Virus record (IMG/VR): IMGVR_UViG_3300024581_002882
DNA from: a virus
DNA: 64,000 nucleotides
Direction: 5' to 3' (one strand)
In this document: positions 1 through 57,527 of the stretch, piece after piece
Position numbering within the stretch: position 1 is the first letter of the stretch
Layout: each line of letters begins with the position of its first letter
Program-made: the position numbers and the translations under genes
The notes under the pieces: model-generated
What the model saw: the letters and a program-made list of their open reading frames with translations, nothing else
The model's database searches: none
What the model was told of the DNA's origin: nothing

Positions 1-90
1 TATAACGGTAGATTTTAACATATCCACCAATGAGTATAAGGATAGATATTACACTACCTTACAAGCTTGGAAATTTGGTAATTCTGAAAA

Positions 91-477
91 TTGATTATTA
101 TGAAAGACGAATTTTCACTTTTACAAGATGATTTAAGCGATTTTGAAAAAAGATGCGTACCTGTAATTGTTAAAGGATTACAGGGTAAAATCGGTAAAGA
201 AAAAGCTGTTAGTAATCCTTATATAATTTCCAAAATGGAAAATTTAGGATATGATGGTTTGACACAGCCAAGAATTAGAAAAATAGTAAACTACATAAGA
301 AATAACGATTTGTTACTTCTTTTGTGTGCGAACTCAAAGGGATATTTTCTTCCTAAAAATTTAAAGGAATTAGACGAGTATCTTGATACAATGGAGAAAA
401 GAATCAACTCACAGATTAAAACTTTTGACAAACTCAAAGAGCAAAGACAAAAGTATTTGAACCACATGAACAACTAA
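91..477 (+). CDS. hypothetical protein, possible winged-helix DNA-binding protein
   Basis: 128-aa ORF; LTQPRIRKIVNYIR followed by CANSKGYF looks like a helix plus wing. Confidence 0.5.
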   Translation: MIIMKDEFSLLQDDLSDFEKRCVPVIVKGLQGKIGKEKAVSNPYIISKMENLGYDGLTQPRIRKIVNYIRNNDLLLLLCANSKGYFLPKNLKELDEYLDTMEKRINSQIKTFDKLKEQRQKYLNHMNN

Positions 478-478
478 T

Positions 479-814
479 ATGTCAAAGAAAAAAGTAAAAG
501 AACGTATCGAGATGTATTCTGAAATAAGCCGAATGAAAGAAGTTAAAATCTTTGGCTTTGATGTTTACTACCACCCTAAAGAAAAACTTTGGTTTCTTCA
601 TCTTAACTATTCAACAACAGAAAAAGACAAGGAAACAGAAAAAGACGTTATAGAGTTTCATGAGGAAATGGAGTGTTACGATGGTAAGGGTTGGCTAAAG
701 ATAAGTGCTGATTTTAAAGAAGAAGATTTTAAAAATGTTATTTCAGAGTGTAGAAAGTCTAAATTCAATATTAAAGGAATTAAGATGTACAGTAATAACC
801 TTAAAATTGTGTGA
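479..814 (+). CDS. hypothetical protein
   Basis: 111-aa ORF tightly coupled to its neighbours. Confidence 0.6.
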   Translation: MSKKKVKERIEMYSEISRMKEVKIFGFDVYYHPKEKLWFLHLNYSTTEKDKETEKDVIEFHEEMECYDGKGWLKISADFKEEDFKNVISECRKSKFNIKGIKMYSNNLKIV

Positions 815-1029
815 AACAAGTGCCTTTAACTGTTATAGAAGAATATTTTAAAGACGTGGAGTTCACAGACGACCACCTTGAATTAGACCAATGTACCACA
901 ATAACCAATATCAAAAAGTTTTACGAATCTCATTTGTCTATTCTAAAAGCCAATAGTGGCAAAAAATCTGTGATGCCTTATTATAAGCGAATTTTAAAAC
1001 TTTACTATATTTATAAAAATACAGTTTAA
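811..1029 (+). CDS. hypothetical protein
   Basis: 72-aa ORF with GTGA overlap with the upstream stop. Confidence 0.55.
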   Translation: MKQVPLTVIEEYFKDVEFTDDHLELDQCTTITNIKKFYESHLSILKANSGKKSVMPYYKRILKLYYIYKNTV

Positions 1030-1121
1030 GAAAACCGTAAGAAAATCGTAAGAAAAAATAATAATGATTTTCAGCAAGTTAGCTTATATCGTAAGAAAGC
1101 CATAAGAAAATCATAAGAAAA
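1027..1121. repeat. two triplets of TAAGAAA(A/G) direct repeats with 11-bp period
   Basis: copies at 1027, 1038, 1049 and 1092, 1103, 1114; intergenic. Confidence 0.85.
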
Positions 1122-1127
1122 TTTTAA

Positions 1128-1760
1128 ATGAAAAAAGAACAAAACCTTTGGCACGAACACTCAAAAAAAGAAAACTCTTTAGAGTACATATTACCTAAAC
1201 GTGATTACGATAGGTTTTGGGAAGAAGGAAAGCTACAAGCAGAACTTATACAGCCTCTCATCAAAGAAACTGATACAATTCTTGAATATGGTTGTGGCGT
1301 AGGTAGAATCTTAACAAACATTAAGTGTAAAAAGAAATATGGTGCTGATATTTCAAAATCTTATTTAGATAGAATAGAAGATGAAGAAATAATACCGCTA
1401 AATTCAAATGGAAAAAGATTAGAGTTAAAAAATGAAACAATAGATTTTATATACTCTATTATGGTTTTTCAGCACATTCCTTATGAATACCATAGAGAAA
1501 TTATTGTAGAACTTCTAAGGGTTCTTAAAAAGGGTGGCAGGATGTTTATTCAATTCCCAAAGAAAACAGATAAATACTTTGCTTACTATAAAGAAACAGA
1601 CTTTGTAAACACTTATTCAGTAGGGGATATTTATGAATATATCCATGAATTAGAAATAACAGATTTTAAAATTAAAGAAGGAAATTTGGTTGCCTACGGT
1701 GAAAACGGTAATTTTAAACCTGAAGAAAATTTAGAACTGTTTTTAAGCATTGTCAAATAA
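1128..1760 (+). CDS. class I SAM-dependent methyltransferase
   Basis: ILEYGCGVGR (motif I), GADIS, IDFIYSIMVFQH, LRVLKKGG. Confidence 0.9.
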   Translation: MKKEQNLWHEHSKKENSLEYILPKRDYDRFWEEGKLQAELIQPLIKETDTILEYGCGVGRILTNIKCKKKYGADISKSYLDRIEDEEIIPLNSNGKRLELKNETIDFIYSIMVFQHIPYEYHREIIVELLRVLKKGGRMFIQFPKKTDKYFAYYKETDFVNTYSVGDIYEYIHELEITDFKIKEGNLVAYGENGNFKPEENLELFLSIVK

Positions 1761-1856
1761 AGAAAGCACCTTATATAAAATTTTAGACTTCCTACTTTTT
1801 ATTGTTATAGTAGCAGATATTTATATTTTTTTAAAGTTGTTATTTTCTTTCTTACC

Positions 1857-2723
1857 TTAAAGAGAAACAAGCATATCCATTAACTCCTGTTGTGGAAAAC
1901 AATCAAACTTATCTTTACGAGTATTTGTGTGTGTCCAAATACCTTTTATACGACCATAGTACGCATCTTCATTAAATTCAAATGCCTTTGCACCCTTTTG
2001 TTTAATAAGTTCAGGAAGCCCTTTTCTAATATCAATTCCATCTCTTTCAGAAATAAACCTCAACAGTTTTTCTAATTTTTTAATTTGCCTATCAGAATAT
2101 TTGTGCCATTGCTTATAACCTCTAAATTCTTCATCTAATAAAACTCTTTGCCTTTCGTGTACATAACTCCCTGCATAAGTTTTTCCTGAATTTAGGTAAC
2201 CAAAATTATTAAGTTCTATTCCCACGCTGTTAGTGTGCATAGATTGATTTCCGTTTTTACCTAAATGCCAACCATAGTGTCCTGTTGGGAAAGCCTGAAG
2301 TAAAACCCCATCAAACGAGTTGTCATCATTTCGTATGCTTTGTCCACCCAACACAAATTCAGTAGCAATCATACCCCTTGTGTCTTTAGCCCAATTTTTA
2401 ATTGTGTTATAAGGGTTATGCCAACCTGCTGTATGGTGTATGAATATATATTCTTTTGGTGTTTTTCCTGATGAATATTCACCTGTTGGCAAATGAAACT
2501 TTTCATAAAGCCCTTTTACATGGTTTTTTTCATCTGTATCTAAATCGTTAAGCTTATTCCAAGTGTTAGTGCCTACTACACCATCTGCTTTAAGACCATT
2601 TGCTAATTGAAATTCTTTTACAGCGTTTTCTGTTTGTTTTCCAAAAACACCATCAGCTTCGATATTAAGGAGTTCCTGTAAGACACGAACATCACTTCCT
2701 TTGTCGTTTAATTTTATCAACAT
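1857..2723 (-). CDS. endolysin: N-terminal peptidoglycan-binding domain plus N-acetylmuramoyl-L-alanine amidase
   Basis: DVRVLQELL..ADGVFGKQTENAVKEFQ..L.ADGVVG (PG-binding); IFIHHTAG, SVGIEL, HTNT..KFDCFP (Amidase_2 zinc motifs). Confidence 0.9.
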   Translation of the reverse strand: MLIKLNDKGSDVRVLQELLNIEADGVFGKQTENAVKEFQLANGLKADGVVGTNTWNKLNDLDTDEKNHVKGLYEKFHLPTGEYSSGKTPKEYIFIHHTAGWHNPYNTIKNWAKDTRGMIATEFVLGGQSIRNDDNSFDGVLLQAFPTGHYGWHLGKNGNQSMHTNSVGIELNNFGYLNSGKTYAGSYVHERQRVLLDEEFRGYKQWHKYSDRQIKKLEKLLRFISERDGIDIRKGLPELIKQKGAKAFEFNEDAYYGRIKGIWTHTNTRKDKFDCFPQQELMDMLVSL

Positions 2724-2778
2724 ATAAATAGAATAAAAAAGGTAATTAGTTTCAAACCCTGTTTAATGTAAAGCTACA

Positions 2779-2985
2779 CTATATCTTTTTATCCTTATTG
2801 GATTTAATAAAAGATGATAGTGAATTTACTAATGTATCAGCACTAAAAAGCATCATAGTACCGAAAATTAATAGAATTACGAAAATCCACAACTGTGCGT
2901 GTTCAACTTTAAATAAGTAGTAAAAAGATACCGCAAAAGTCAACAAACCAATAAGTGTGGTTTTCCACTCTGATAATTTACCCAT
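2779..2985 (-). CDS. putative holin (2 TM)
   Basis: 68 aa, two hydrophobic helices, basic C-terminus, directly upstream of the endolysin. Confidence 0.55.
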   Translation of the reverse strand: MGKLSEWKTTLIGLLTFAVSFYYLFKVEHAQLWIFVILLIFGTMMLFSADTLVNSLSSFIKSNKDKKI

Positions 2986-3010
2986 AATTAAAATTTTAAG
3001 GTTAATGGCT

Positions 3011-3018
3011 CAAATTTA
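3011..3018 (-). promoter_or_regulatory. Bacteroidota-type -7 promoter box for the holin-endolysin operon
   Basis: reverse complement TAAATTTG matches TAnnTTTG, 26 bp upstream of the holin start. Confidence 0.5.
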
Positions 3019-3059
3019 AAATATTTCTATGTTTTTTATGGTATAAAAGAACTTTTTTT

Positions 3060-3067
3060 TATTTTTG
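3060..3067 (+). promoter_or_regulatory. Bacteroidota-type -7 promoter box
   Basis: TATTTTTG upstream of ORF 3091, divergent from the 3011 box. Confidence 0.45.
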
Positions 3068-3090
3068 AGTATAAAAATTTAGCCAAGAAA

Positions 3091-3303
3091 ATGATTAATA
3101 TAGAATTTGAAACTTTTGATGAAATATCTGAAACTCTCAATATTGTAGGAGACACAATCAATAATTCACTCAACGAAAACGAAAAAATAGTTACCATACA
3201 ACTTCATGGTAAGGAGTACACCATAAATACAAATTCGGACACTTTTAAAGCAGGACTTTTATATGGTCTGTCTATTTCAAAGGATTTAGCTGTACAAAGA
3301 TGA
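3091..3303 (+). CDS. hypothetical protein
   Basis: 70-aa ORF. Confidence 0.55.
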   Translation: MINIEFETFDEISETLNIVGDTINNSLNENEKIVTIQLHGKEYTINTNSDTFKAGLLYGLSISKDLAVQR

Positions 3304-3449
3304 GATTTGAAAAATACACACAGGTAGGGCAGATTAATTTAATTCCATCAATTTCTATTACATACGATAAAACTCTTTGGGGCGGTTATGAAATAGGTTT
3401 TGTTTGGCTAAATGTGTGGGTTGGAATACAATGGGGATATGAAAATTAG
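3300..3449 (+). CDS. small hypothetical protein (49 aa, MRFEKYTQVGQINLIPSISITY...)
   Basis: read by eye; ATGA overlap with the previous stop; below the ORF-track cutoff. Confidence 0.45.
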   Translation: MRFEKYTQVGQINLIPSISITYDKTLWGGYEIGFVWLNVWVGIQWGYEN

Positions 3450-3577
3450 AACAGGAAAATACCACAGTCAATTTTCGCTTGGAATATCTTACACCACCTT
3501 TAACAACACATACAAAGCCCTTGTTTTTGAATTTTTGTTCTTTTATATAGAAATTGTATTCAAAGATTACGAATAAG

Positions 3578-3635
3578 TTATTTTAGAAAATAATTTATTT
3601 ATTTTAAAAAATAATTTCTTTATTTTAAAAAATAA
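3578..3635. promoter_or_regulatory. three palindromic TTATTTT-N2-AAAATAA sites at 21-bp spacing (candidate operator or iterons)
   Basis: exact copies at 3578, 3599 and 3620, just upstream of the -7 box at 3639. Confidence 0.7.
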
Positions 3636-3638
3636 TTT

Positions 3639-3646
3639 TACATTTG
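3639..3646 (+). promoter_or_regulatory. Bacteroidota-type -7 promoter box for the HTH/replication operon
   Basis: TACATTTG, 25 bp upstream of the HTH gene. Confidence 0.65.
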
Positions 3647-3671
3647 CTTCATTGTAATTAAAAAGAAACTT

Positions 3672-3881
3672 ATGAAAATTACCAAACTACAACGTATTTT
3701 AAGGAGTAGAGGATTGACACAAACAGATTTGTTTCAAATAATAAATGATTCTACGCACAAAAACATTGGACAGGACAGAATTAATAAATTAGTTCTTGGA
3801 AAACAGAAAAATTACACTATTGAAACTGCAAAAACAATTGCAGATGTTCTTGGTGTTAAATTAGATGATTTTGTAGAGTAA
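3672..3881 (+). CDS. XRE/Cro-family helix-turn-helix regulator
   Basis: LQRILRSRGLTQTDL...INKLVLGKQKNYTIETAKTIADVLGVKLDDF. Confidence 0.85.
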   Translation: MKITKLQRILRSRGLTQTDLFQIINDSTHKNIGQDRINKLVLGKQKNYTIETAKTIADVLGVKLDDFVE

Positions 3882-4516
3882 TGGATTTATTGGAATTTAT
3901 AACACAGTTTTCTAATAAGCCAAAAGTTCATGGGGATATTTGGCTATATATTATTTCTCGTGTTAACAATAAAATCCATGTAAGTGAAATATTAAGGCTA
4001 TATAAAGTTTCTAAAGCAAGTTTATATAGGATTTTTAAAGAATATAATACTGAAATAGAATATAAATCTGAATATATAGTTTTTCAAATAAAAAACTCTT
4101 GTGTTTGTTCAAATACAATAACGAAAATAAATAGCCAAACTAAAAAGGTTTCTAATAAAGTAAAAGAAACAAAAGTAGAAGAAGCAAAAGAAGTAGATAT
4201 ATATAAAGAAATAATAGAATATCTTAATATGCAAAGCGGTAAACGTTATTCATATAAAACACAAACAACAAAGCGTTTTATAAATGCTCGTTTAAAAGAG
4301 GGATATATATTTTCAGACTTTAAAAAAGTAATAGATATAAAGTGTTCAAAATGGCTTAATTCTTCAATGGAAGATTATTTAAGACCACAAACATTATTTT
4401 CAAATAAATTTGAGGGTTATGTAAATGAAACTTTAAATGGTAAAAAAGATATAGTAGATAAAGCAAATGACACAATTAGTAAAGCAAAGCAATTCGATTG
4501 GCAATTTGATTCCTAA
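3881..4516 (+). CDS. phage replication initiator-like protein with conserved phage C-terminal domain
   Basis: EIIEYLN..SGKRY...INARLKEGY..SDFKKVID.K...W.....DYLRPQTLFSNKFEGYVNE resembles Phg_2220_C; position after the XRE gene is lambdoid. Confidence 0.75.
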   Translation: MDLLEFITQFSNKPKVHGDIWLYIISRVNNKIHVSEILRLYKVSKASLYRIFKEYNTEIEYKSEYIVFQIKNSCVCSNTITKINSQTKKVSNKVKETKVEEAKEVDIYKEIIEYLNMQSGKRYSYKTQTTKRFINARLKEGYIFSDFKKVIDIKCSKWLNSSMEDYLRPQTLFSNKFEGYVNETLNGKKDIVDKANDTISKAKQFDWQFDS

Positions 4517-5270
4517 GTTACCAAAGAAAACGGTAACGATATATGATGCCTATAAAACATCTGTACGCATAATGGATTTTAACACCAATGCACAGATGAA
4601 TAAATTAGTGGAAGTAATTGGGCAATGGTCTTTTTATTTAGGCTTGTCAGATAAAGTGTCTGAAAAAGAACTTATATTAATAGCACAGTTTATAAAAGAA
4701 AACTTTGGTAGCTTAAATATAACAGATATGCAAGAAGCTATAAAAATGTGTACAAATGGGGAATTGGATTCCGAAATTGAACACTTTGGTAAATTATCTC
4801 CGTTATATATTGGAAAAGTTTTAAATGCTTACAAATTAAAAAGAAGTAGCCTTATTGTTGATATAAATAAAAAAGTGGCTCAACTTGAATTTGAAGCAAA
4901 TAAAAAAGTTCCAACAGCAGAAGAAAACCTAAACAATATGAAAATAATTGTGCAAAATGCTTGGTTGGATGTAAATAGCGGAAAAACATTTTATGACTTT
5001 GGGGATTGCGTATATAACTACATAAAAGAAAAAAAGCTTATGGTTGTTGATGACGATATGATTGAAAGGGCTAAAAAATACGCTAAAAGAAACATAAAAG
5101 AAGAACAGCATCAATCCACAATGAAATCTGTTATTAATAATATGCGTTTTGAAAAAGTAGATGCTGAATCCATAAAAAGAAAAAAAGCAAGAGAATATAT
5201 TGTAAACGAGTGGCTTTCTTCTATGAACAAGAAACAAGCTGTTGATTTTGTAAAACAAATGAAATTATAA
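4467..5270 (+). CDS. hypothetical replication-module protein (possible helicase loader)
   Basis: position directly after the initiator; no diagnostic motif. Confidence 0.4.
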   Translation: MTQLVKQSNSIGNLIPKLPKKTVTIYDAYKTSVRIMDFNTNAQMNKLVEVIGQWSFYLGLSDKVSEKELILIAQFIKENFGSLNITDMQEAIKMCTNGELDSEIEHFGKLSPLYIGKVLNAYKLKRSSLIVDINKKVAQLEFEANKKVPTAEENLNNMKIIVQNAWLDVNSGKTFYDFGDCVYNYIKEKKLMVVDDDMIERAKKYAKRNIKEEQHQSTMKSVINNMRFEKVDAESIKRKKAREYIVNEWLSSMNKKQAVDFVKQMKL

Positions 5271-5618
5271 ATGAAGAAGTGTAACGTTTGTAAAAACAAA
5301 AAACCCAAAATGTTTTTTAAAGAGGGTAAAAAAACCTGTAAGACTTGTGAAAAAACTTTTTACAGGTCTTTTCTGCGTTTTTTAGTTTTGCAAAGAAAAC
5401 TTAGTCCTGCCGAAAGAATGGGGAACAGATTAGGGTATATGGGTACAGCTTTTATTATGATGTCGCCATATCTTTTACAGTATGATGGTTTTGGTGCATA
5501 CACCTATTTAACAGGTGCTGTTTTGTCAATACCTCAAGTTTGGATAGCAAAGCAATGGAACTTAGTTGTTGTAAACTTGAACCTATTGGTTGGATATGGA
5601 GTTTATATTTTTAATTAA
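5271..5618 (+). CDS. zinc-finger plus about 3-TM membrane protein
   Basis: CNVC...CKTC at the N-terminus; hydrophobic C-terminal half with an LSIPQV motif. Confidence 0.55.
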   Translation: MKKCNVCKNKKPKMFFKEGKKTCKTCEKTFYRSFLRFLVLQRKLSPAERMGNRLGYMGTAFIMMSPYLLQYDGFGAYTYLTGAVLSIPQVWIAKQWNLVVVNLNLLVGYGVYIFN

Positions 5619-5924
5619 ATGGTTATAGAGGGCTACATATTTGATAGGATAGATGTTTCTGAAAAAGTTACGCAAATAGTGATGCGTAAAAAACATAAGG
5701 AACGATATAACTATATATGCTTTGTAGCTTTTGGTTGGGTTAAAGACAGAATAAACGAACTTGATTTACAGCAAAAAGACAAAATCCGCATTGAGTATTA
5801 TATAAAAAGCAAAAAGTGGAATGAACGTTATTCTACTGATGCTATTATAGAAAAAATAGATTTAAAGGAAAGAAGAACAAATCAAATAGTAGTTGATTTT
5901 GAAACAGGAGAAATATTTGAATAA
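5619..5924 (+). CDS. possible OB-fold ssDNA-binding protein
   Basis: beta-rich pattern, ICFVAFG, IRIEYYIKSKKWNERYST, acidic tail DFETGEIFE. Confidence 0.4.
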   Translation: MVIEGYIFDRIDVSEKVTQIVMRKKHKERYNYICFVAFGWVKDRINELDLQQKDKIRIEYYIKSKKWNERYSTDAIIEKIDLKERRTNQIVVDFETGEIFE

Positions 5925-6580
5925 TGGGAAAAACAGATAAATATAATTTTTTGGTAGGAATACCAACAATAAACAGGGCAGACCTTTTGAATGAAGCCCT
6001 TGAAAAATATTTTATTGATTTTTATAAAAACGATATTTTTATAGTTGACAATGGGAATCAAGATATTTTAACTCGTGAAGAAAGGTTTGAAGTTTACAAG
6101 CCTAAAAAAAACTTAGGGGTTGCTAAAAGTTGGAATCTTATTTTAGATAAAGCTGTTGAATTGGGCTATCCGAGAGTTTTGATATTAAATGATGATGTTT
6201 ATTTAGGCAAACACAGAAAAGACATTGAACAGCTTATAGAAACGTATTATCACGCTGATTTGATACACTCTACTAAGAATTTTTGTTCTTTTATAATGAC
6301 AACATTTGCGTATAAAATGTATGGTGGTTTTGATGAGGGCTTTTTTCCTGCCTATTTTGAGGACAATGACTTTAAATATCGACTTAAAATTAATGGTGGA
6401 TATTCCACCGAAACAGAAGAATTAGACCCTGAAGTTTACAGAAACAGCATGAGCATCAAAAAAGACATAGACTTAAATAATAATTTTGAAAAAAATGAAA
6501 AAAGATATATCGAAAAGTGGGGTGGGTTGCCAAGTGAAGAAATTTTTAAAACGCCTTTCAACAATCAAGATAGGGCATAA
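5924..6580 (+). CDS. glycosyltransferase family 2
   Basis: VGIPTINR, IFIVDNG, NLGVAKSWN, LILNDD, GGFDEGFFPAYFEDND. Confidence 0.9.
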   Translation: MGKTDKYNFLVGIPTINRADLLNEALEKYFIDFYKNDIFIVDNGNQDILTREERFEVYKPKKNLGVAKSWNLILDKAVELGYPRVLILNDDVYLGKHRKDIEQLIETYYHADLIHSTKNFCSFIMTTFAYKMYGGFDEGFFPAYFEDNDFKYRLKINGGYSTETEELDPEVYRNSMSIKKDIDLNNNFEKNEKRYIEKWGGLPSEEIFKTPFNNQDRA

Positions 6581-6721
6581 AGAGATATTTTTAGGATTAA
6601 CTTTCTTTTGCGGAGTGTTAATTTTATGGGTAGATAATGTTTTTGTAGAAATTTTTTGGTTATTTTGTTATTCTGTATGGTTATTAATGTTTTATGACCT
6701 GCAAAAAGAAAAATTTATAGA

Positions 6722-7396
6722 ATGAAAAATTTAGCAAACAAAGTAATTATTTTAGCCCTGTTAGTGGTTGTTTGCTTGTTATTTTTACGTTCTTGTCAGT
6801 TAGAAAAAGATTATAACAGAGTTTCGAGTGCCTTAACGGTTGCTGATTTAAAAAATCAAAAATTTGAAACGGAATTAAACGAAAAAGGTGAGCAATTAGC
6901 TACCCAAAAACAACTTATCCTTTCACAGGAAGAAGCACTTGAAAATAATCTTATACAAATTGAAGAACTTAAAAAGTATAAGCGAATAAAAAGTAAAACA
7001 GAAATAGTTACAAAAACAAAAATTGATACTGTTTATGTGGCTTTTGACCCTGTAAATGAAAACGACAGCACTTATGTGCCTATCCCTGATGGATTTTTTA
7101 GAAATTTCAGTTATACCGAAAAAGATGATTGGTATAAGTTTTCAGGAAGTGTATCAGAAAAAGGGCTAACCATGAATAACATGGAAATTAAAAATAAATA
7201 TAGCCTTTTGATAGCCGATAAAAAATTGGGTTTATTTTCAAAACCCGAACCCCAAGTTATTCTAACTAATTCTAATCCGTACACAAATACAGTTTCGATG
7301 AATAATGTCCAAATCAAATTTGAAAAACCATTTTATAAGAAAGAGTGGTTTTGGTTTGTTTTGGGTGCTACCACAACAACTGTAATTTTAAAATAG
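6722..7396 (+). CDS. membrane or lipoprotein with C-terminal TM (possible unimolecular spanin)
   Basis: N-terminal hydrophobic helix ending FLRSC, coiled coil, beta region, C-terminal KPFYKKEWFWFVLGATTTTVILK. Confidence 0.45.
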   Translation: MKNLANKVIILALLVVVCLLFLRSCQLEKDYNRVSSALTVADLKNQKFETELNEKGEQLATQKQLILSQEEALENNLIQIEELKKYKRIKSKTEIVTKTKIDTVYVAFDPVNENDSTYVPIPDGFFRNFSYTEKDDWYKFSGSVSEKGLTMNNMEIKNKYSLLIADKKLGLFSKPEPQVILTNSNPYTNTVSMNNVQIKFEKPFYKKEWFWFVLGATTTTVILK

Positions 7397-7425: not shown

Positions 7426-8667
7426 ATGGATAGGTTAAATTTAAAAGGCAAAATTTCTTTAGCCATAGCTATTTTAATTATGCTATCATTTTTCATTGTT
7501 AAAACGCTACTTCTTTTTGGTTTTTTAGAATATTCAGAGTTTACAAATTGGTATGAATATCTGTCGGTTATATTTTTTATGCCACCATTTTTTATTGTTA
7601 TTTCACAATTTTTATATAGGTTAAAAAAAAGAGAAGAACTTATTGATTCACAGTTAAGGGCTGTAAATCAATCAAACCTTGTCGTTAATTTAACTATGGA
7701 TGGTCGTGTAATTAGTGCCAATAAAAACTTTTGTGATTTAGTTGGCTATGAAGAAAAAGAAATTTTAAATAAGCCTCATAAAAAATTAGTAACTCCTGAA
7801 TATCAAAACAGTAAGGAATATAAAATATTTTGGAAAAAATTAAATGATGGGGAAACTATAACAGAAAAATTTGAAAGAGTTTCTAAAAATGGAAAAAGTG
7901 TTTGGTTGTATGGAAATTACACTCCTATAAAAAATTCTAAGGGTGTATTTTACAAAGTTTTAAAAATAGCAAACGATGTAACAGAACAGCATATTGCAGG
8001 AGAATTAGTAAACCAAAAAAACACTTTTTTAGAACATTCTGCAAAGATTTTAAGACATGATATGCATAGCGGTATTAACACTTATATACCAAGAGGAATA
8101 AAATCTTTAAAAAGAAGGCTTACCGAACAGCAAATCAAAGATTTAAAAATAGAAGCACCATTAAAATTAATTGCTGATGGACTGCATCACACTCAAAAAG
8201 TTTATGAGGGCGTAAAAGAATTTACCAATCTTGTTCGGGAAGATGCTGTATTGAATTTAGAAGAACACAATTTAAAAGAAATTCTTTGTGAATATTTTGA
8301 CCTAACATCTTATAAGGAAAGCATTATTATTGATGATTTGCCAACAATAAGCGTAAATAAACCGCTTTTTTGTACTGCAATTGATAATCTTGTTAGAAAT
8401 GGTTTGCGTTATAACGATAGTAAAACTAAATTTGTTAAAATTTTTATGTTAAAAAATAATATTTTAGCAGTTCAAGATAATGGTAGAGGAATGAGCCAAA
8501 GAGATTTTTTGAGACTTTCAAAACCATATACAAGAAAAGAAGGACAAAAAGAAACAGGCACAGGGCTTGGTATAAACATTTGTAACGCTATTTTAGAGCA
8601 ACATGGTTTTACCATAAAATCAGAAAAAAAAGAATTAGGAACAATTTTAAAAATTAAAATAGCGTGA
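7426..8667 (+). CDS. membrane PAS/PAC sensor histidine kinase
   Basis: 2 TM; PAS-PAC (FWKKLNDG..FERVSKNGKSVWLYGNYTPI...KIANDVTE); H-box ILRHDMHSG; N-box IDNLVRNGLRYN; G1 VQDNGRGM; G2 GTGLGINIC; start placed at ATG 7426. Confidence 0.93.
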   Translation: MDRLNLKGKISLAIAILIMLSFFIVKTLLLFGFLEYSEFTNWYEYLSVIFFMPPFFIVISQFLYRLKKREELIDSQLRAVNQSNLVVNLTMDGRVISANKNFCDLVGYEEKEILNKPHKKLVTPEYQNSKEYKIFWKKLNDGETITEKFERVSKNGKSVWLYGNYTPIKNSKGVFYKVLKIANDVTEQHIAGELVNQKNTFLEHSAKILRHDMHSGINTYIPRGIKSLKRRLTEQQIKDLKIEAPLKLIADGLHHTQKVYEGVKEFTNLVREDAVLNLEEHNLKEILCEYFDLTSYKESIIIDDLPTISVNKPLFCTAIDNLVRNGLRYNDSKTKFVKIFMLKNNILAVQDNGRGMSQRDFLRLSKPYTRKEGQKETGTGLGINICNAILEQHGFTIKSEKKELGTILKIKIA

Positions 8668-9095
8668 TAAAAAGTATTTTATTAGTTGATGATGAAAGTT
8701 TATTTCATTTAGTATTTGAAGATGCGTGTTCACTTTTGGACATTGCACTAAACCTTGAATCTATTGATAGTTCGGATAAAGCCGAAGAAATGTTTAAAAT
8801 ATGGCAAAAACACCCTGAAAAAAAGCCTGAATGTGTTTTTGTGGACTTAAACATAATAGGAAGTAGCTTTGATGGTATCGAACTTATTAGAAAAATTAAC
8901 TTTGATTATGGCGATGGGGTTGTTATAGGCATTATATCCTCATCAAGCGATAAATCTGAACAAGCAAAAGCGATTCAATCGGGTTCGCAGTTTTGGATTG
9001 TGAAAAGTGATGATATTGAACCTCGTCTTGAAGAATTTAAAAAAGATTACGAGGGCTACAAGAACAAAACAGCACCGTTTAAAGTATATGAATAA
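8664..9095 (+). CDS. single-domain response regulator (CheY-like receiver)
   Basis: ILLVDD acidic pocket, VFVDLNI phospho-Asp, IISSS, WIVK conserved Lys; no output domain. Confidence 0.93.
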   Translation: MIKSILLVDDESLFHLVFEDACSLLDIALNLESIDSSDKAEEMFKIWQKHPEKKPECVFVDLNIIGSSFDGIELIRKINFDYGDGVVIGIISSSSDKSEQAKAIQSGSQFWIVKSDDIEPRLEEFKKDYEGYKNKTAPFKVYE

Positions 9096-9646
9096 TGATT
9101 AAAATATCTCAAGAAACTAAAGACACACTTAAAAACCTTGCTCAAGAAAACAATATATATCTTGAGGGAAATATCATTAAATTCATAGAAGTAGGTGATG
9201 ACGAGGAATTTCTTGCATATCTAAACGAAGCAACAAAACAAGACAAAGAAAACAGGAAAAAGAGGCTTCTTGTAACAAAACAAGTTCAACAACAAAACAA
9301 AGAACTTGTAAAACAAAAGGAAGAAAAAGAAGGTTTGTTAGACGAATTAGAACAAGCCCTTAAAAAAGCTGAAGTTTCAAAGGAAATTGCAGAGCAAGAT
9401 TTAACGCTTTTACAAAAGAAAACCCAAACAGAATTAGTAGGGAATATTGTAAAGGTTTCTCTTGTTTTAATTTGCGGTATAGCCCTTATGATAACCATTC
9501 TTTACTCTCTTGCACTTGTTTTTAATAAAGACACAGAGTTGCTTGGAAATACCTTTTCAAATATGTTAGGTATATTGCTTACTAACTCTTTTAGCATAAT
9601 TGGAACTATTATGGGTGTTAAGTATGCAACAAAAGACACAAACTAA
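9095..9646 (+). CDS. coiled-coil protein with two C-terminal TM helices
   Basis: Q/E/K-rich heptads then hydrophobic segments; TAATG-coupled to the response regulator. Confidence 0.7.
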   Translation: MIKISQETKDTLKNLAQENNIYLEGNIIKFIEVGDDEEFLAYLNEATKQDKENRKKRLLVTKQVQQQNKELVKQKEEKEGLLDELEQALKKAEVSKEIAEQDLTLLQKKTQTELVGNIVKVSLVLICGIALMITILYSLALVFNKDTELLGNTFSNMLGILLTNSFSIIGTIMGVKYATKDTN

Positions 9647-10238
9647 TGAAAAAACATAAAGAAACTATAAGTTTCACATTAAACATGATAATTTTAGAAT
9701 AGTGTACTTAAAATATTGTAAATTTAAAAACTTCGAATAATGAAAGTATTAAAAAAACCATTATTTATTTTTTCATCTGTAGTAGCGTTAGATTATTTGA
9801 TTTCAAAATTTAACACAAAACCAAATGTATTTTATTTAAACAAATTGCCAAAAAACTTTAATGCTCAATCAATACCGCCTTTTGGAATTTTTATATCTAA
9901 AAAAGAAAAGGACAATCAAATACTACTAAATCATGAAAAACAACATTGGAAACAATATAATAAAACAGGTGCTATACTTTTCTATTTAAGATACTTTTAT
10001 GAATATCTTGTTCATGGATATGATAATATGCCACTTGAAATAGAAGCAAGAAAAGAAGTAAAAGAAAGTAAATTTTGTCAACAAAACTATACTGATTGTG
10101 TAAGAACAAACAAAGCAATTACAGTACAAAACGATAAATTTCGACAATTATGATTTAAATATCTTTAGAAACTAAAGACACAAACTAATGAAAAAACATA
10201 AAGAAACTATAAGGTTTATATTACACATGACAATTTTA
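9632..10238 (+). repeat. 65-bp direct repeat pair (9632-9696 and 10174-10238) flanking one gene
   Basis: first 40 bp identical (AAAGACACAAACTAATGAAAAAACATAAAGAAACTATAAG), 5 mismatches in the next 25 bp. Confidence 0.9.
9740..10153 (+). CDS. HExxH zinc-metallopeptidase-like protein
   Basis: LNHEKQHWKQY...PLEIEAR. Confidence 0.65.
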   Translation: MKVLKKPLFIFSSVVALDYLISKFNTKPNVFYLNKLPKNFNAQSIPPFGIFISKKEKDNQILLNHEKQHWKQYNKTGAILFYLRYFYEYLVHGYDNMPLEIEARKEVKESKFCQQNYTDCVRTNKAITVQNDKFRQL

Positions 10239-10277
10239 TTAATTGTTTCGCTAATAATTGCCATTATAACCGAGTAA
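10188..10277 (+). CDS. 29-aa membrane peptide MKKHKETIRFILHMTILLIVSLIIAIITE
   Basis: read by eye; starts inside the second repeat copy; the first copy encodes a truncated 18-aa version from 9646. Confidence 0.45.
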   Translation: MKKHKETIRFILHMTILLIVSLIIAIITE

Positions 10278-10287
10278 ACTAATAGAC

Positions 10288-11478
10288 ATGAAAAATATTT
10301 TATTTTTTGGTGATTTTGATTGCACCACAGGGTTTGGTAACGTATCAAAAGAACTTGTAAGTGAATTTTCTAAAGAATATTTTGTAACAGTATTTGCAAC
10401 AAACAACTACAAAAAAGAACCATACAATTTTAGCGAAACAGTTTATGTAATCCCTGCACTTAATACAAGAGATGAAAACGACAAGGATTTATATGCTCGT
10501 AAGTCTTTTTTAAAACTACTATACAACGGAAGCTACGACCTTGTTTTTTGTCTTAATGACTTAGAGGTTATTAATGAGTTAGATGAGCATTTAAGAAATG
10601 TAAAAAACGCAAGGAAAAAAGCCAACAAAAAGTCTTTTAAGTCTATTTTTTACTTTCCAATAGACAGTCCTGTAAGAAAAAAAGATTTAAAAGTGCTTTC
10701 ATTTTTTGATGAAGCTGTTACATATACAGATTATGCAAAACAAGAAGTAAAACGTCTTTTAGGATTTAGCAACTCATATAAAAAACTAAAAGTTATTCCA
10801 CATGGTGTAAGTTTAGCTTATAAAAAAAATAATCAAACTAAGCGGAACAAAAACTTTACATTTGGTTGCGTAAACAGAAATTCAGTAAGAAAAGATTTTG
10901 GAACACTACTTTGTGCATTTGCTGATTTAAAAAAAGATGAGGATTTTAAAGATTGTGTTTTAAAACTACATTGTAACCCACAAGACCCATTTGGTTTAAA
11001 TTTATATCGTCTTTGTCAGCGTTTAGAACTTGAAATAGATAAAGATGTGTATTTCCCTGATGAATTTAACGAAAACAAGGGTGTAAGCGAAGAAGAACTG
11101 AATGGTTTTTACAACAGTATAGATTGTTTTATAACCACAACAACAGCAGAGGGGTGGGGTTTAACGGTACATGAAGCTATGGCTACAGAAACTTTGGTGG
11201 TTTGTCCTATGCACACTTCACTTAAAGAAATAACTGATAGTGGTAAATGCGTAGTTCCTATATATCATGTTTCAGAAAAAGTATTTAAAGATGACTTTGA
11301 AAAGATACGTTATGTGTCTGATACGTTTCAGGTTACGGAATCAATGAAATACGCTGTGGAGATTGACCCTTCAGTTAGGACAAAAAAAATTTTAGATGCT
11401 AAGTCAATAGCATCCAAATACAATTGGAAAAAAACAGCCGAAATGTTTAAAAGACTAATCCAAAAACAAATCGGCTAA
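10288..11478 (+). CDS. glycosyltransferase family 4 (GT-B)
   Basis: TTGFGNVSKEL, VIPHGV, VNRNSVRKD, ITTTTAEGWGLTVHEAMA. Confidence 0.9.
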   Translation: MKNILFFGDFDCTTGFGNVSKELVSEFSKEYFVTVFATNNYKKEPYNFSETVYVIPALNTRDENDKDLYARKSFLKLLYNGSYDLVFCLNDLEVINELDEHLRNVKNARKKANKKSFKSIFYFPIDSPVRKKDLKVLSFFDEAVTYTDYAKQEVKRLLGFSNSYKKLKVIPHGVSLAYKKNNQTKRNKNFTFGCVNRNSVRKDFGTLLCAFADLKKDEDFKDCVLKLHCNPQDPFGLNLYRLCQRLELEIDKDVYFPDEFNENKGVSEEELNGFYNSIDCFITTTTAEGWGLTVHEAMATETLVVCPMHTSLKEITDSGKCVVPIYHVSEKVFKDDFEKIRYVSDTFQVTESMKYAVEIDPSVRTKKILDAKSIASKYNWKKTAEMFKRLIQKQIG

Positions 11479-11835: not shown

Positions 11836-13959
11836 ATGAGTAGAATTGATTTTTATAAAACATATTACGAGAATTTAACTCCATCTACTTTAAGCGTAAG
11901 CAAAAATGAAGATAAAATTCAAATAAGTGGTTTTGAAAATAAAAACAACCAATACTTTATGGAATCATACGAAAAGGGTGGAGAAACAGGTTTTAATCCT
12001 GATGGTGCTATAAAAGACAAGGTAGTCCATGCTTCAGGTAAAGCAGGGGGTATGCTTGTTGGTAAAAGACATAGTGAGGGCGGAATCAAAGCCATTAATA
12101 AATCTACAGGTCAGCCAATAGAAATGGAAGGTGGCGAAGTAGTTATTACACGAAACGCTGTATCTGACAATACTAAAAGAAGTTTTAACGGAAAAATGAT
12201 GACCAATCGTCAAATTCTTTCTGCAATCAATGAAAGTGGTGGTGGTGTTTCATTTGCAAATGGCGGTCAAGTTCCCAAAAATGTAACTTTTGACTGCAAT
12301 GCCGAGTATGAGTATGGCGGAAAAACCATGTGTGGAAAAGACTTAGCGAAAAGCATGGCTAAAGGTGGGGCTACTGATGATGATTTTAGCGATATAATTT
12401 CTGCTGTTCAGACAGTAGATGTTATGGAAGATGGGGGTGAAACTCCACAAGACACAGCTAAATTGATGCAAGAGGTTATTGATTTTGAAGGAAAAAACCC
12501 TTATAATTCATATTTATTTTTCTTTAATTCAAAGAATCCTTCTTTTAGTGAAATAAAAGGAGAATATGAAACAAAAGATGGTAGAATTTTAAAATTTAAA
12601 GCAAATACTTATTTTGAATTAATTTCTTATTTTAATAATATTTTAGATTATGGAAATACTAAAGTAGCTTTTTACAAAGGAAAGGAAATTGTTGGTTTTC
12701 CTATTGAAATTGATGATGAAATATATTTAGTAAGAATTTCAAACAAAGCGAGAAACAGTAAAAATATATTTAACCCAAAAACAGGTTCGCTTTACAATTT
12801 TTTAGTTCATCTTTATTTTAAAAATATAGAAGATTTTAAAAATAGTGAACTTTATAAAAAAGATTGGACTGAATTTATATTATATTCTGTTCCATCAAGC
12901 ACACAAACCACAGAAGAAGAAAGTAAAACAGAAACAGAAGTAAAAAGTAAAATAGATTACGATAAGCTAAAAAAGTATTTAAGAGCAAGAATAAACGCAT
13001 TATCTACTGAACTTAACATAAAGTCTGTTGCACTTTCTATTGATGAAATAGGAATTTACCAAAGAGAAATAAGAGAACTCATAACACGATACCGACAACT
13101 TCTTGAACAAGAAAGAGAAAATATATCGTTTTTAGATAGGCTAAAATCAGCTTATTCTGTAAAATGGGGTGATATAAATAAAAAATACACCCCTGCTGAT
13201 TTAGTTTCAATAAATGGCAAGAAAACAGAATTGACAGAGCAAGAATATCTTACGGTTAGAACTGAAAACTTTCAGTCATTCTTTGGAAATTGGGAAAAAG
13301 CCTATGAAACAAATAATTATACAGATGTTTCTAAGGTTATAAATGAAAAAACTAAAGAACCACTTGCTGTGTTTCATGGAACAAATGTTCTTTTTACAAA
13401 TTGGAAAACATACGAAACCAATAATGCTCACTATTTCACCAAAAAAAGAGAAATGGCAAACTTCTTTGCTACGTCTTGGGATTCAAGAGGGGATAAGGCA
13501 GGTGTAGATTCTCAAATTATAAAAAAACTTAATCCAAACAAAGGAGAATTTATATATAGATGTTTTCTTGATATTAAAAACCCTATTGATTTTTCAAGGT
13601 TTGGAGTAGAAAAAAGACCTGTTAAAGATTATCTTAATTTCTTAAAAATAAATTACAACATTCAGGATTTTGATTTTTGGAGTAATATAAACAAGGGGTT
13701 TGATGTAAAGCAAGAAACTTTGGTTTATGCGTGGCAAATAATTCGTGCATGGCAACAGTTTACGGTTTACGTTAAAATTTATACGCCCTATGATGGATAT
13801 ATTTTCTATGAGTTTATACCTGATTCTGCAAAGCAAGACATAAATGATGCTTCGCTTTCCTTTTGCACATTTGATAGTAACCAAGTGAAATTTGCTGATG
13901 CTGTTGAGTTTAACGCACTTTCAGACGATTCACGATTAAAATATGGTGGTTTATTATGA
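11836..13959 (+). CDS. polyvalent protein with xxGG motifs and a C-terminal ADP-ribosyltransferase-like (ART-PolyVal-type) domain
   Basis: VRTENFQSFFGNWE...SKVINEKTKEPLAVFHGT...HYFT...CFLDIKNP; N-terminal GKRHSEGGI...EMEGGEVVI; motifs YEKGG, FANGG, MAKGG, MEDGG, LKYGG. Confidence 0.7.
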   Translation: MSRIDFYKTYYENLTPSTLSVSKNEDKIQISGFENKNNQYFMESYEKGGETGFNPDGAIKDKVVHASGKAGGMLVGKRHSEGGIKAINKSTGQPIEMEGGEVVITRNAVSDNTKRSFNGKMMTNRQILSAINESGGGVSFANGGQVPKNVTFDCNAEYEYGGKTMCGKDLAKSMAKGGATDDDFSDIISAVQTVDVMEDGGETPQDTAKLMQEVIDFEGKNPYNSYLFFFNSKNPSFSEIKGEYETKDGRILKFKANTYFELISYFNNILDYGNTKVAFYKGKEIVGFPIEIDDEIYLVRISNKARNSKNIFNPKTGSLYNFLVHLYFKNIEDFKNSELYKKDWTEFILYSVPSSTQTTEEESKTETEVKSKIDYDKLKKYLRARINALSTELNIKSVALSIDEIGIYQREIRELITRYRQLLEQERENISFLDRLKSAYSVKWGDINKKYTPADLVSINGKKTELTEQEYLTVRTENFQSFFGNWEKAYETNNYTDVSKVINEKTKEPLAVFHGTNVLFTNWKTYETNNAHYFTKKREMANFFATSWDSRGDKAGVDSQIIKKLNPNKGEFIYRCFLDIKNPIDFSRFGVEKRPVKDYLNFLKINYNIQDFDFWSNINKGFDVKQETLVYAWQIIRAWQQFTVYVKIYTPYDGYIFYEFIPDSAKQDINDASLSFCTFDSNQVKFADAVEFNALSDDSRLKYGGLL

Positions 13960-30423: not shown

Positions 30424-30588
30424 ATGGCTAATAAAAAACATGAGTATATATCAGATATAACTTCTATGGATTTTATATTCTTAAGAACTATAACAAAATC
30501 AGATGATTGCATAACTTTTAATGCAATTACATTAGATAATCAGGAGTTTTACGGAGAAGAAACTTCTATAAAATATGAAACAAAATGA
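30424..30588 (+). CDS. 54-aa hypothetical protein
   Basis: read by eye; ATGA overlap with the ATPase start. Confidence 0.45.
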   Translation: MANKKHEYISDITSMDFIFLRTITKSDDCITFNAITLDNQEFYGEETSIKYETK

Positions 30589-31397
30589 GAGAACCAAAAT
30601 TAGGAGTAGCAGTAGGTAAAAAGGGTGTTGGAAAAACATACACAACTAATCAGGTTATTGATAGTTACGTTAAGGGAAATCCCCAAAAAGGTGTTAAACC
30701 AAGAAGGGCTTTAATTCTTGATGTGAACGATGAATTTGAGCATATTAAAGCGTTAAGCCTTAAAGACGTAATGAAGTTTTCAGTACACCCAACTATTGAG
30801 GCGAGAAGAATAAGACCTTTTATGGAAGATGGTCAAAGAATGACAATAAGGGAAATTCAAGAAACACTTTTTGCTATTCTTAAAGATTACAGGGGTGGGC
30901 TTTTATTAATTGAGGACATAAATAGATATATTTCTGACCAATTACCAAACGATGTTGTAGGTGCAATATGCACAAACAGACACGCTGATACAGACATAAT
31001 TCTTCACTTTCAATCTATTGGTAGGGTAACAACTAAAATTTGGCAAAACTTAAATTGGTTGCGTTTTCACAAAAACACAGATAGTGTTGATAGACATAAA
31101 CATAAGTTTGAAGATAAGTTTGAATATCTTAAAATTGCTGAAATTTTAGTAAACCATAAATACTATAATGGAGATGAAAGATATTACCTATATGTAGATA
31201 TAGATAGTGAAAAGATTATGGGAAATGTAAGCAAAAAAGATTTAGACTTTGCTATTGAAGAATACATTTCAAAATACTACAAAAAAATCGTAACACCCTT
31301 GCTTAACCAAATGGGTATGGATGGAAAGAAAAAATATACACCCGAAAAGGCGATAAAAGAGATAAAAAGTAAGATTTATAAGAATTTTACACGATAA
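30585..31397 (+). CDS. FtsK/HerA-superfamily (A32/P9-like) genome-packaging ATPase
   Basis: VAVGKKGVGKT (Walker A), ALILDVNDEF, LLLIED (Walker B), TNRHADTDIILHFQS (RH...Q motif); about 270 aa; adjacent to the capsid candidate. Confidence 0.75.
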   Translation: MREPKLGVAVGKKGVGKTYTTNQVIDSYVKGNPQKGVKPRRALILDVNDEFEHIKALSLKDVMKFSVHPTIEARRIRPFMEDGQRMTIREIQETLFAILKDYRGGLLLIEDINRYISDQLPNDVVGAICTNRHADTDIILHFQSIGRVTTKIWQNLNWLRFHKNTDSVDRHKHKFEDKFEYLKIAEILVNHKYYNGDERYYLYVDIDSEKIMGNVSKKDLDFAIEEYISKYYKKIVTPLLNQMGMDGKKKYTPEKAIKEIKSKIYKNFTR

Positions 31398-31463
31398 ATG
31401 CGATAATCGTCAATTATTGCAGATATTTTTATTCTTTGCAATAAAAATTATTTTAAAACACAA

Positions 31464-31471
31464 TATATTTG
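31464..31471 (+). promoter_or_regulatory. -7 promoter box for the capsid transcript
   Basis: TATATTTG. Confidence 0.6.
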
Positions 31472-31507
31472 AAGCGTAAATGGTTCTGTAACCGTTTGCG
31501 TTTTTTT
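31472..31507 (+). terminator. intrinsic terminator-like hairpin after the ATPase
   Basis: AAGCGTAAATGGTT-CTGT-AACCGTTTGCGTTT (14-bp stem with G-U pairs) plus T tract. Confidence 0.6.
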
Positions 31508-31533
31508 ATTTATTAACTTTTAATCATTCTGTA

Positions 31534-31662
31534 ATGAATACCAAAGTGCTTTTAGAGTTTGGAAAGCAAGTTTTAACTGTCGCTGTTGGAGTTGCTGTGT
31601 ATAACGCAGTAAAACCAATGCTCGATAAGGCTAAACTTTCTGCACCAAGTTCAGACGAATAG
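31534..31662 (+). CDS. 42-aa membrane protein co-transcribed with the capsid gene
   Basis: MNTKVLLEFGKQVLTVAVGVAVYNAVKPMLDKAKLSAPSSDE; read by eye. Confidence 0.65.
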   Translation: MNTKVLLEFGKQVLTVAVGVAVYNAVKPMLDKAKLSAPSSDE

Positions 31663-31710
31663 TCAAACAAATTTCAAATTATTTATTAAACATTTAAAAA
31701 TTTATTTATC

Positions 31711-32400
31711 ATGTCAAATGTACGCAGATATTTAGCAAACGCACAGAGAATGGCTAACGAATCTTTCTCTAATGCCGATGGTTTCATTGATGATGATTTG
31801 TCTTTCACAGGCGATGACTTTTTCAATGCTCAAGGTGGAGGGGCTTCAGCACCTACATCACAGCCATACATCGTAACAGTAACATCTACTTCAGGTAGTG
31901 CTGTTTCAGATTTCGAAGTACTCGGTTCTTACGAGTACATTAACAACGCAGGGTTCACAGCAGGTGGCGACCTTGTAATCGGTTCTATCACTATTTCAAG
32001 TGGTATTGCAGGTATTACATATCGTGAAATGTTGTATCAGTTTATGAACAACCCTTATAGCGTAGGACTTACTTATGTACAGTCAGCTACAGCTAACCAA
32101 ATTTTGGAGACAATTTCAGTTAACACGAGAGATGCTAACGGTAACGAGGCTCAAAAAACACTTGTGCCAACAATCGACCCGTATCAGCAACAATCTACAG
32201 TATTGGCTATGAAATATGCTTACCGAATTGATGGTTTCACAAAACTTATCATTCGTCAAGTATTAGCCAACGCTACTGTTAAATTGTACTTCTACCCATC
32301 TGACAACATTAATCTTGCTCGTGGACTTGCAGGACAAAATGTTTCTCGTCAGTACGGAAATCCCGGCATTGTAAAAGCACAAACCATCAAATTATCATAA
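31711..32400 (+). CDS. candidate major capsid protein (single vertical jelly-roll type) with acidic N-terminal propeptide
   Basis: next to the packaging ATPase; own promoter and terminator; visibly enriched TTC/TAC/AAC/ATC codons; alternating beta-strand pattern; paralogue at 52937. Confidence 0.6.
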   Translation: MSNVRRYLANAQRMANESFSNADGFIDDDLSFTGDDFFNAQGGGASAPTSQPYIVTVTSTSGSAVSDFEVLGSYEYINNAGFTAGGDLVIGSITISSGIAGITYREMLYQFMNNPYSVGLTYVQSATANQILETISVNTRDANGNEAQKTLVPTIDPYQQQSTVLAMKYAYRIDGFTKLIIRQVLANATVKLYFYPSDNINLARGLAGQNVSRQYGNPGIVKAQTIKLS

Positions 32401-56711: not shown

Positions 56712-57508
56712 ATTTCATCATCAATATCCAATGATTTTGTCAGATTTGTATAAAGGGGGTTTTTCCCAACCATTTTTCCTCGTATCAAATTTACATTGTC
56801 CGATTCGTCAACTACTATATAGTCTCCGCCCTCAACATGGTCGTCAAGAGAAATAGCTTTTTGTAGCTTTAAATCTTCTTTAGGAAGCGTTTTAGATAGC
56901 TGTTTAAGTACAATTTTTTTTATCATCCAATGCTGTGGGTCTTTGCTGTCATTAAAGTAAAGATGATTTGGTGTTTTTTGCATCTTAATTATTTCAGAAA
57001 TCTCACTTCTACTTAAAACCTTAAAAACAGTTTCGCCACCCTCTAATTTAACACAGGCGTACACATATTTAATAAACTCTGATTTTTTTACAGCTTTGTC
57101 GCTTGGTATATGTGTGAGTTTTGGATTTAACCCTAACTCATATTCAAAATCATCGCCATCGTAAACTACCTCTGTCCAAATATTTTTAATCTTATTGCTT
57201 CTATAAAGGAGTGTGATAAGCCCTTTGTAGCCTATAATTGGAGTGATTATGTTTTTAAAAGGTATAAAATAAAACTCCCCAACGAGTTCGCTTGGATTTA
57301 GCCCCAACTCGGCACAATGCAGAATAGAAGCAAATAAAGAGGCAGGGTTTTTTTGAAAAGCACTCTGAAGCTGTGGACTACGCTTTAGTTCGGTAATCAT
57401 AATTTGCTTAAATTTTGCAGGACTTATAGAACCATCAAGCAATTCAGTGAAATTTTGTTTTTCGTATTTTTCTATTGTATTTTGGAAGTTTGTAATTAGT
57501 TCTTTCAT
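56708..57508 (-). CDS. recT: RecT-family ssDNA annealing protein
   Basis: PASLFASILHCAELGLNP...YFIPF....IIGYKGLITL.YRS...EVVYDGDDFEYELG...M.KK.VLKQL.KTLP. Confidence 0.92.
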   Translation of the reverse strand: MKELITNFQNTIEKYEKQNFTELLDGSISPAKFKQIMITELKRSPQLQSAFQKNPASLFASILHCAELGLNPSELVGEFYFIPFKNIITPIIGYKGLITLLYRSNKIKNIWTEVVYDGDDFEYELGLNPKLTHIPSDKAVKKSEFIKYVYACVKLEGGETVFKVLSRSEISEIIKMQKTPNHLYFNDSKDPQHWMIKKIVLKQLSKTLPKEDLKLQKAISLDDHVEGGDYIVVDESDNVNLIRGKMVGKNPLYTNLTKSLDIDDEI

Positions 57509-57527
57509 TTTAATTTGATTTACACAG

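Follow-up and report, generated by a model that had tools for sequence, protein, structure and literature searches.

A viral histidine kinase, lone receiver and membrane hairpin protein as a candidate phosphorelay with a possible role in lysis timing

Organisation and conservation of the trio

The window, by which we mean the whole analysed stretch of 64,000 nucleotides, comes from an uncultured marine virus. Three intact open reading frames follow one another on its plus strand: a sensor histidine kinase of 413 aa at 7426-8667, a single-domain response regulator of 143 aa with a GTG start at 8664-9095, and a third protein of 183 aa at 9095-9646. The genes are coupled through the overlaps GTGA (kinase and receiver) and TAATG (receiver and third gene). 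The preliminary description, which had reported an intact and coupled kinase, lone receiver and coiled-coil protein with two transmembrane (TM) segments, agrees with the frames, overlaps and motifs that are present. Promoter scans gave no excess over shuffled sequence. All viral loci with sufficient flank show the order kinase-receiver-third gene, whereas the genes around it vary. Unrelated genes for patatin-like, membrane and unknown proteins were observed within the trio at L012, L030, L035, L053, L066 and L071, with all three core genes kept.

Complete kinase-receiver pairs had been described as uncommon in phages. This is true of cultured phages, among which the trio had no match, but not of aquatic metagenomes, where clustering at 90% identity gave 3,504 clusters of the third protein and 3,860 of the receiver. 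The Atlas clusters of the third protein are all viral. Counting the relay trio together with a fused sensor-hairpin form, described below, the system was found in hundreds of viruses.

An assembly chimera, or a recent and decaying capture from a host, is hardly credible as an explanation of the trio. A few Bacteroidota contigs do contain a homologous pair, whose receiver is as much as 80% identical, but in independently assembled data from other samples the trio has the same neighbour on each side, and its GC content (0.294) is close to that of the flanks (0.299 and 0.301). Compared with relatives at dS near 1, the receiver has a dN/dS of 0.018, the third gene one of 0.06-0.07 and the kinase one of 0.15-0.17; the trio is under purifying selection. 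These values, together with the thousands of viral homologues, speak against decay and host capture. The synteny proposed earlier as a check is there, both as trio order in related viral loci and as a shared site between assemblies, and the reading of the trio as virus-encoded holds.

The kinase and its exchangeable sensor

The kinase matches the Pfam families PAS_3 (E 2.6e-14) and HATPase_c (E 8.7e-13, 49.1 bits against a cut-off of 26.4), and its hydropathy shows two TM segments, aa 4-36 and 45-64, with a very short loop between them. The N box (320-329), G1 box (351-355) and G2 box (378-382), as well as His211 in the motif HDMHSG, are invariant in 36 homologues. The ATP-binding domain has the N, G1, F and G2 boxes of the GHKL type, and its best match among solved structures is CpxA. 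The H, N, G1 and G2 boxes reported earlier as intact are all found, but the H box, although invariant, lies in a divergent region that matched neither Pfam HisKA nor a canonical DHp profile. Since the pair His211-Asp212 is invariant, with the Asp directly next to the His, and lies in a conserved segment 109 residues before the N box, we infer that His211 is the phospho-acceptor. His204 and His214 are likewise invariant.

The PAS domain (about aa 77-189; 7654-7992, plus strand) appears to be of the FAD type. An F-alpha Trp and a His are FAD determinants of PAS sensors (PMC10468136), and the window PAS keeps both as Trp136 and His118, aligned with those of MmoS and Aer. The FAD-type pattern of F-alpha Trp plus His and/or Asn is found here through Trp and His, with the Asn absent. 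The Asn of Aer, NifL and MmoS corresponds to Glu150, which we read as an AerC-type pattern. The FAD-binding sensors MmoS (3EWK), Aer (8DIK) and NifL (2GJ3) are among the solved structures closest to this domain (E 4e-10, 1e-5), and the likeness to them and to AerC (PMC10468136) lies in the F-alpha Trp and the His. Across 29 PAS-bearing homologues the F-alpha position is Trp in 22 and Tyr in seven. Because the FAD-determinant residues are kept, redox sensing is plausible, and it is likely that the PAS of the window strain senses flavin redox.

The PAS is also the fastest-evolving part of the kinase, with dN/dS of 0.27-0.30. A different PAS, MmoS-like and with Tyr where the window has Trp, is found in the near-identical strain L085 (95-97% nucleotide identity beginning at 8014), and the break falls just before the His helix. 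In other phages the sensor region has GAF-PAS, GAF-PAS-PAS or no PAS at all. Since the PAS is optional and swappable, the input signal is not fixed: the input of the relay varies, and the receiver and its partner do not. The earlier suggestion that the virus senses host redox or energy state is therefore plausible as far as the FAD-type residues go, but it does not extend to one signal for the whole system.

The receiver

The receiver matches Response_reg above the Pfam cut-off (E 5e-9). The residues D9, D10, D61, S92 and K114 are invariant in 78 homologues, Trp111 occupies the aromatic switch position, and helix 1 and the face formed by beta5 and helix 5 are nearly invariant. There is no output domain; homologues were searched for at lengths of 78-251 aa, and all of them were 143-148 aa long. 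The previous description of a receiver with all catalytic residues and no output domain was correct. The receiver has an invariant acidic face (110-130, net -3) and the N-terminal module of the third protein an invariant basic stretch (48-66, net +5), charges that would suit a contact between them. When the receiver was modelled in complex with residues 1-110 of the third protein, the median was 0.31 against a mark of 0.32, a value that we weigh neither for nor against such a contact.

The third protein and its relatives

The third protein has no Pfam family above cut-off. Its hydropathy shows two TM segments, 112-145 and about 157-175, and the AlphaFold model (pLDDT 85.6, pTM 0.37) consists of two short helices, one helix of 105 residues and a C-terminal hairpin. 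The hairpin carries an invariant polar strip and a GxxxG motif (LTNxFSIIGTIMG). Fold searches returned only generic helical matches in the PDB, and only the protein's own viral family in the Atlas. We divide the protein into an N-terminal module (N-module; about aa 1-68, 9095-9298, plus strand), which would be an input domain that reads the receiver, and a coiled-coil linker with the C-terminal 2TM hairpin (9299-9646, plus strand), which would be the output. Divergent family members with altered hairpins were also seen (P0501, P0505, P0528 and P0532, at L101), with the receiver still upstream in the one context observed.

Profile searches revealed longer relatives of two kinds, N-module kinases and hairpin fusions. 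In the fusions the coil and 2TM hairpin lie directly behind PAS-PAS, PAS or GAF, and there is no other output domain. The PAS-PAS-2TM form occurs in at least 80 viral loci. The fused forms have at least two origins, since the PAS-PAS proteins form one clade and the GAF protein falls outside it. PAS-PAS-2TM and GAF-2TM phage proteins (L093:4911-6026, L102-L181, L097:5843-6925) are very common in IMG/VR, usually beside an endolysin gene.

The two halves of the third protein differ in the company they keep. Where the N-module is present, the trio receiver lies immediately upstream in all 165 loci having enough flank, and where the hairpin occurs without the N-module there is no receiver in any of 66 loci; at 85% identity these loci collapse to 58 and 11 groups, respectively. 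Four records rated complete and carrying the hairpin-only form had no receiver anywhere in a search that included a positive control. The strict co-occurrence and the two kinds of domain fusion are most simply explained by an N-module that reads the receiver and a hairpin that serves as output. We consider it very probable that the wiring runs from sensor to receiver to N-domain to hairpin. Domain co-occurrence lends strong support to the earlier proposal that the system signals to the third protein; no support was found for signalling to host machinery.

The flow could also be reversed, with the 2TM protein acting as a membrane sensor or auxiliary regulator, which would tune the kinase or dephosphorylate the receiver, and the output lying elsewhere. 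Small membrane partners often regulate kinases, this kinase is almost without a periplasmic domain, and PAS-less versions exist. A membrane protein of 62-66 aa (L001:2762-2950 and similar) with a conserved Cys-Pro and a weak likeness to YgaP/DUF2892 (E 0.017) is absent from the window and never adjoins the fused form, and as a 62-aa Cys protein it precedes the kinase immediately in 11 of 24 relay groups, which would suit such a reversed flow. Reversal is nevertheless very improbable, because the PAS-PAS-2TM and GAF-2TM proteins, in genomes without the kinase or receiver, are sensible only if the hairpin is the output, and because in cells the N-module stands at the input end of a kinase.

Cellular relatives

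Rare Bacteroidota operons encode a canonical HisKA-HATPase kinase whose N-terminal part consists of the N-module (first 70 residues) and coil. The order is kinase-receiver-kinase; the first kinase has the same HDMHSG box, and the receiver is 70-80% identical to that of the window. One contig with an N-module kinase is a Bacteroidetes MAG, where the operon lies among ordinary chromosomal genes. Operons with a kinase, a receiver and an N-module kinase were seen at L090:3088-6463, L094:3669-7050, L098:179-2523 and L087:164-1608, and one cellular N-module kinase (L089) has no receiver directly upstream. A YceI-like gene lies 5' of the kinase in a cellular operon (L099:601-1134) and in one phage group (L056:2217-2747). 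Its domain order makes the Bacteroidota operon a candidate for a kinase cascade: the lone receiver would regulate the second kinase through an undescribed domain.

Homologues of this kind, which place the kinase-receiver pair in some Bacteroidota chromosomes, raise the alternative that the viral receiver or kinase mainly cross-talks with two-component systems of the host, as a phosphate sink or donor, and that the third protein is an accessory anchor. Single-domain receivers can indeed serve as hubs (PMC5964349). Such cross-talk is improbable all the same: the receiver subfamily was found in only one of 401 Bacteroidota genomes and in one of 301 within the family of the seed, in both cases the seed itself, and the receiver was never seen without an N-module gene downstream. 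A peptide-pattern search of GTDB genomes found no match to the trio.

In a FastTree phylogeny of the kinase core, receiver and N-module the cellular operons form one clade (0.999) near the clade of the window. The tree comprises 64 dereplicated rows, rows with truncated domains being left out, and is midpoint-rooted only, and therefore we claim no direction of transfer. Phages may have captured the system from a kinase cascade of cells, or cells may have received it from phages.

An accessory cassette, apparently in two kinds of virus

A related record of 79 kb (G723), whose capsid candidate is 95% identical, is colinear with window positions 1-7366 and resumes at 10281, with about 100 bp between and no trio. 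There the stop of the gene for a DUF6549-like protein overlaps the gene of a short TM peptide, the homologue of which in the window is a 29-aa single-TM ORF at 10188-10277 (plus strand). This peptide gene, which is coupled to the third gene in relatives, is the right border of the insertion. The junction therefore indicates that the trio either entered between the genes for the DUF6549 protein and the TM peptide or was cleanly lost. The cassette is absent from G723 and from most of the 29 family records, and the trio is a dispensable accessory cassette.

The window has a 542-bp insert of its own (9628-10238, plus strand), absent from close relatives and with a 69-nt direct repeat (91%) at its borders. 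It contains the gene for a 137-aa HExxH protein (9740-10153). The start of the insert is a copy of sequence preceding the kinase (9689-9734), and at its end (10146-10187) the start of the third gene is seemingly joined to its end via a 9-nt microhomology. The insert could represent a tandem second allele of the slot, or an assembly product that merges two alleles. Genes for glycosyltransferases of families GT2 (5924-6580) and GT4 (10288-11478) lie on either side of the DUF6549 gene and cassette. Further on, 11836-13959 encodes a 707-aa protein with an ART-PolyVal ADP-ribosyltransferase domain, the first of several large polyvalent-like proteins.

The carrier viruses appear to be of two kinds. 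Among the top PHROG families of the 67 window ORFs there was no clear match to terminase, portal or HK97 capsid. A P-loop ATPase is encoded at 30585 (weak match to a terminase-family PHROG), and at 31711 a highly conserved protein of 229 aa (1,660 clusters), a capsid candidate that models as one beta-sandwich with middling matches (pLDDT 54; best Z 6.8, rmsd 3.9, 127 aligned). This candidate is absent from the large tailed phages that carry the trio. The terminase family PF03237, the one terminase family compared, was found in four of five of those phages as against none of nine records of the window family. Relatives in the window family that share the ATPase and capsid region (30585-32400) are 69-102 kb long, two of them with inverted terminal repeats. 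The trio appears to be common to tailed viruses and, to judge from these genes, a candidate tailless group. Many carriers probably infect Bacteroidota, to go by the cellular homologues.

The lysis neighbourhood and a proposed mechanism

Of the groups flanked by at least 2.5 kb on each side, 14 of 24 with the relay and eight of nine with the fused form have an endolysin gene inside that distance; counting holins too raises the relay figure to 16. By chance such proximity would be about 3-17%, a contrast that the shared ancestry of the groups inflates. The neighbouring endolysins are of unrelated types: PG-binding GH19 or amidase, lysozyme, and M15 peptidase. The window has a PG-binding amidase (1857-2723, minus strand) 4.7 kb upstream of the trio, which belongs to the same protein cluster as endolysins adjoining the trio in other phages. 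Its distance, beyond the 2.5 kb used above, and its opposite strand weigh against a lysis role in this virus. In three records of the window's own family the order is a small 2TM gene, an M15 endolysin, PAS-PAS-2TM, and then either a DUF6549 homologue or a weakly Rz-like pair.

The gene directly upstream of the cassette (6722-7396, plus strand), for a DUF6549-like protein with TM and coiled-coil segments, had been called spanin-like. It lies outside the cassette and matches DUF6549 and phrog_14010, both of unknown function, and it is kept in the cassette-less G723. The support for a spanin role is indirect, namely that a weakly Rz-like pair takes the slot of this gene in a relative (L148).

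In the proposed mechanism the inner-membrane kinase would read the state of the infected cell, here probably flavin redox via the PAS domain, and elsewhere via GAF, other PAS domains or a TM hairpin alone. The kinase would autophosphorylate on His211 and then phosphorylate Asp61 of the receiver, which would bind the N-module of the third protein, and the signal would run along the coiled coil to the 2TM hairpin. The divergent DHp without a HisKA match and the L089 kinase without an adjacent receiver count against this relay. The last step is the least certain: the hairpin may change membrane permeability or holin triggering, either as a gated holin-like pore or as an antiholin-like regulator, and lysis would come earlier or later. 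Since the cassette is dispensable, the hairpin is not the essential holin and is at most a modulator. We lean slightly towards lysis timing as the controlled process, on the strength of the gene neighbourhood, and the reading of the trio as a self-contained, virus-encoded phosphorelay with a membrane output that times lysis has, in our estimate, a little better than an even chance.

The same wiring might have another job at the inner membrane of the host, such as superinfection exclusion, tuning of the proton-motive force or ion leak in the course of infection, or countering membrane-based host defences. The cassette is accessory and patchy, a third of the relay lineages (8/24 groups) lack both an endolysin and an annotated holin gene within 2.5 kb, and in one family member (L173) the fused gene has small membrane-protein genes around it and is remote from lysis genes. 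Effectors commonly take the form of 2TM hairpins with a polar strip. Accessory membrane genes accumulate in lysis regions, and the closeness to lysis genes may only reflect late expression and an insertion-tolerant region. We regard such another job as unlikely, if still worth weighing, in view of the repeated placement beside unrelated endolysin families, with both architectures and in two unrelated virus types. Nor was there any convincing match to a defence system. With PADLOC and Pfam models of 2TM effectors (SLATT, Cap15, CBASS/Pycsar TM) the window protein had no PADLOC match, and 113 homologues gave scattered weak PADLOC matches, probably caused by the coiled coil. No lysis or holin family in Pfam or PHROG matched the third protein or the fused form, which weighs against the lysis reading.

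Lysis timing also enters a broader, more tentative reading, which we place somewhat below even chances. According to it, tailed jumbo phages and a tailless lineage would have one family of cassettes in common, in interchangeable two-component and one-component forms, and these would turn the redox or energy state of the host into post-translational gating of a new hairpin that sets the time of lysis. As part of the same reading, and as tentatively, the N-module would be an undescribed receiver-reading domain, which bacteria would use to chain two kinases.

Comparison with known systems

CheY-FliM is a system with a single-domain receiver. The trio resembles it in having a His kinase and a receiver with all catalytic residues whose output would work by protein contact. 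MrrA is the response regulator of another such single-domain system (PMC5964349). In the DivK-DivL system, phosphorylated DivK binds DivL (PMC4211667), a second kinase-like protein that reads receiver phosphorylation, as we infer for the cellular kinase-receiver-kinase operon. Unlike the CheY, DivK and MrrA systems the trio is virus-borne, its DHp lies outside Pfam HisKA, the putative reader is a small unclassified helical domain and not a DHp, and the output would be a 2TM hairpin. Apart from the divergent DHp, the sequence features checked are those of a two-component system, and by its sequence the trio falls in none of the described families of holins and defence effectors.

The cues known to set lysis timing are holin build-up, superinfection and quorum signals. 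If the lysis reading holds, the trio shares with lysis inhibition in phage T4 (holin T with the antiholins RI and RIII; PMC8385771) a signal-dependent timing control at the inner membrane. T4, however, senses superinfection through an antiholin that binds directly in the periplasm, and uses neither a phosphorelay nor a metabolic sensor, and we found no sequence or fold link between its holin or antiholins and the trio. VqmA-Phage/Qtip of Vibrio phage VP882 (PMC7790227) is likewise encoded by the phage, responds to a host cue and times lysis, but it is a one-component transcription factor acting on the lysis-lysogeny switch, whereas the trio relay would be post-translational and has no DNA-binding part. 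Clostridioides phage phiCDHM1 has a histidine kinase gene within agrD-agrB-agrC (PMC3901668), a recently host-derived quorum-sensing peptide system with no response regulator; the trio would be a complete relay with its own effector, and is found much more often in viruses than in cells. Jumbo phages have a divergent cREC domain (PMC7824862), which was considered and rejected as a counterpart, since it never occurs with kinases. No description of the trio system was found in the literature searched, most subscription journals lying outside the search. New here are the cassette indel, the sensor swap, the cellular kinase-cascade relative and the occurrence in a candidate tailless virus.

If the interpretation is right, a phage phosphorelay reading host physiology and acting at the membrane would be a new layer of control, present in thousands of aquatic viral protein clusters, and it could influence the timing of lysis in bloom bacteria. 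It would also make the N-module a new adaptor between receiver and output. Being small and modular, the system lends itself to direct testing, with near-identical strains that have a different PAS or no cassette as natural controls. The window also encodes a RecT and PD-(D/E)XK nuclease pair (56708-58585, minus strand), a possible driver of the sensor swaps.
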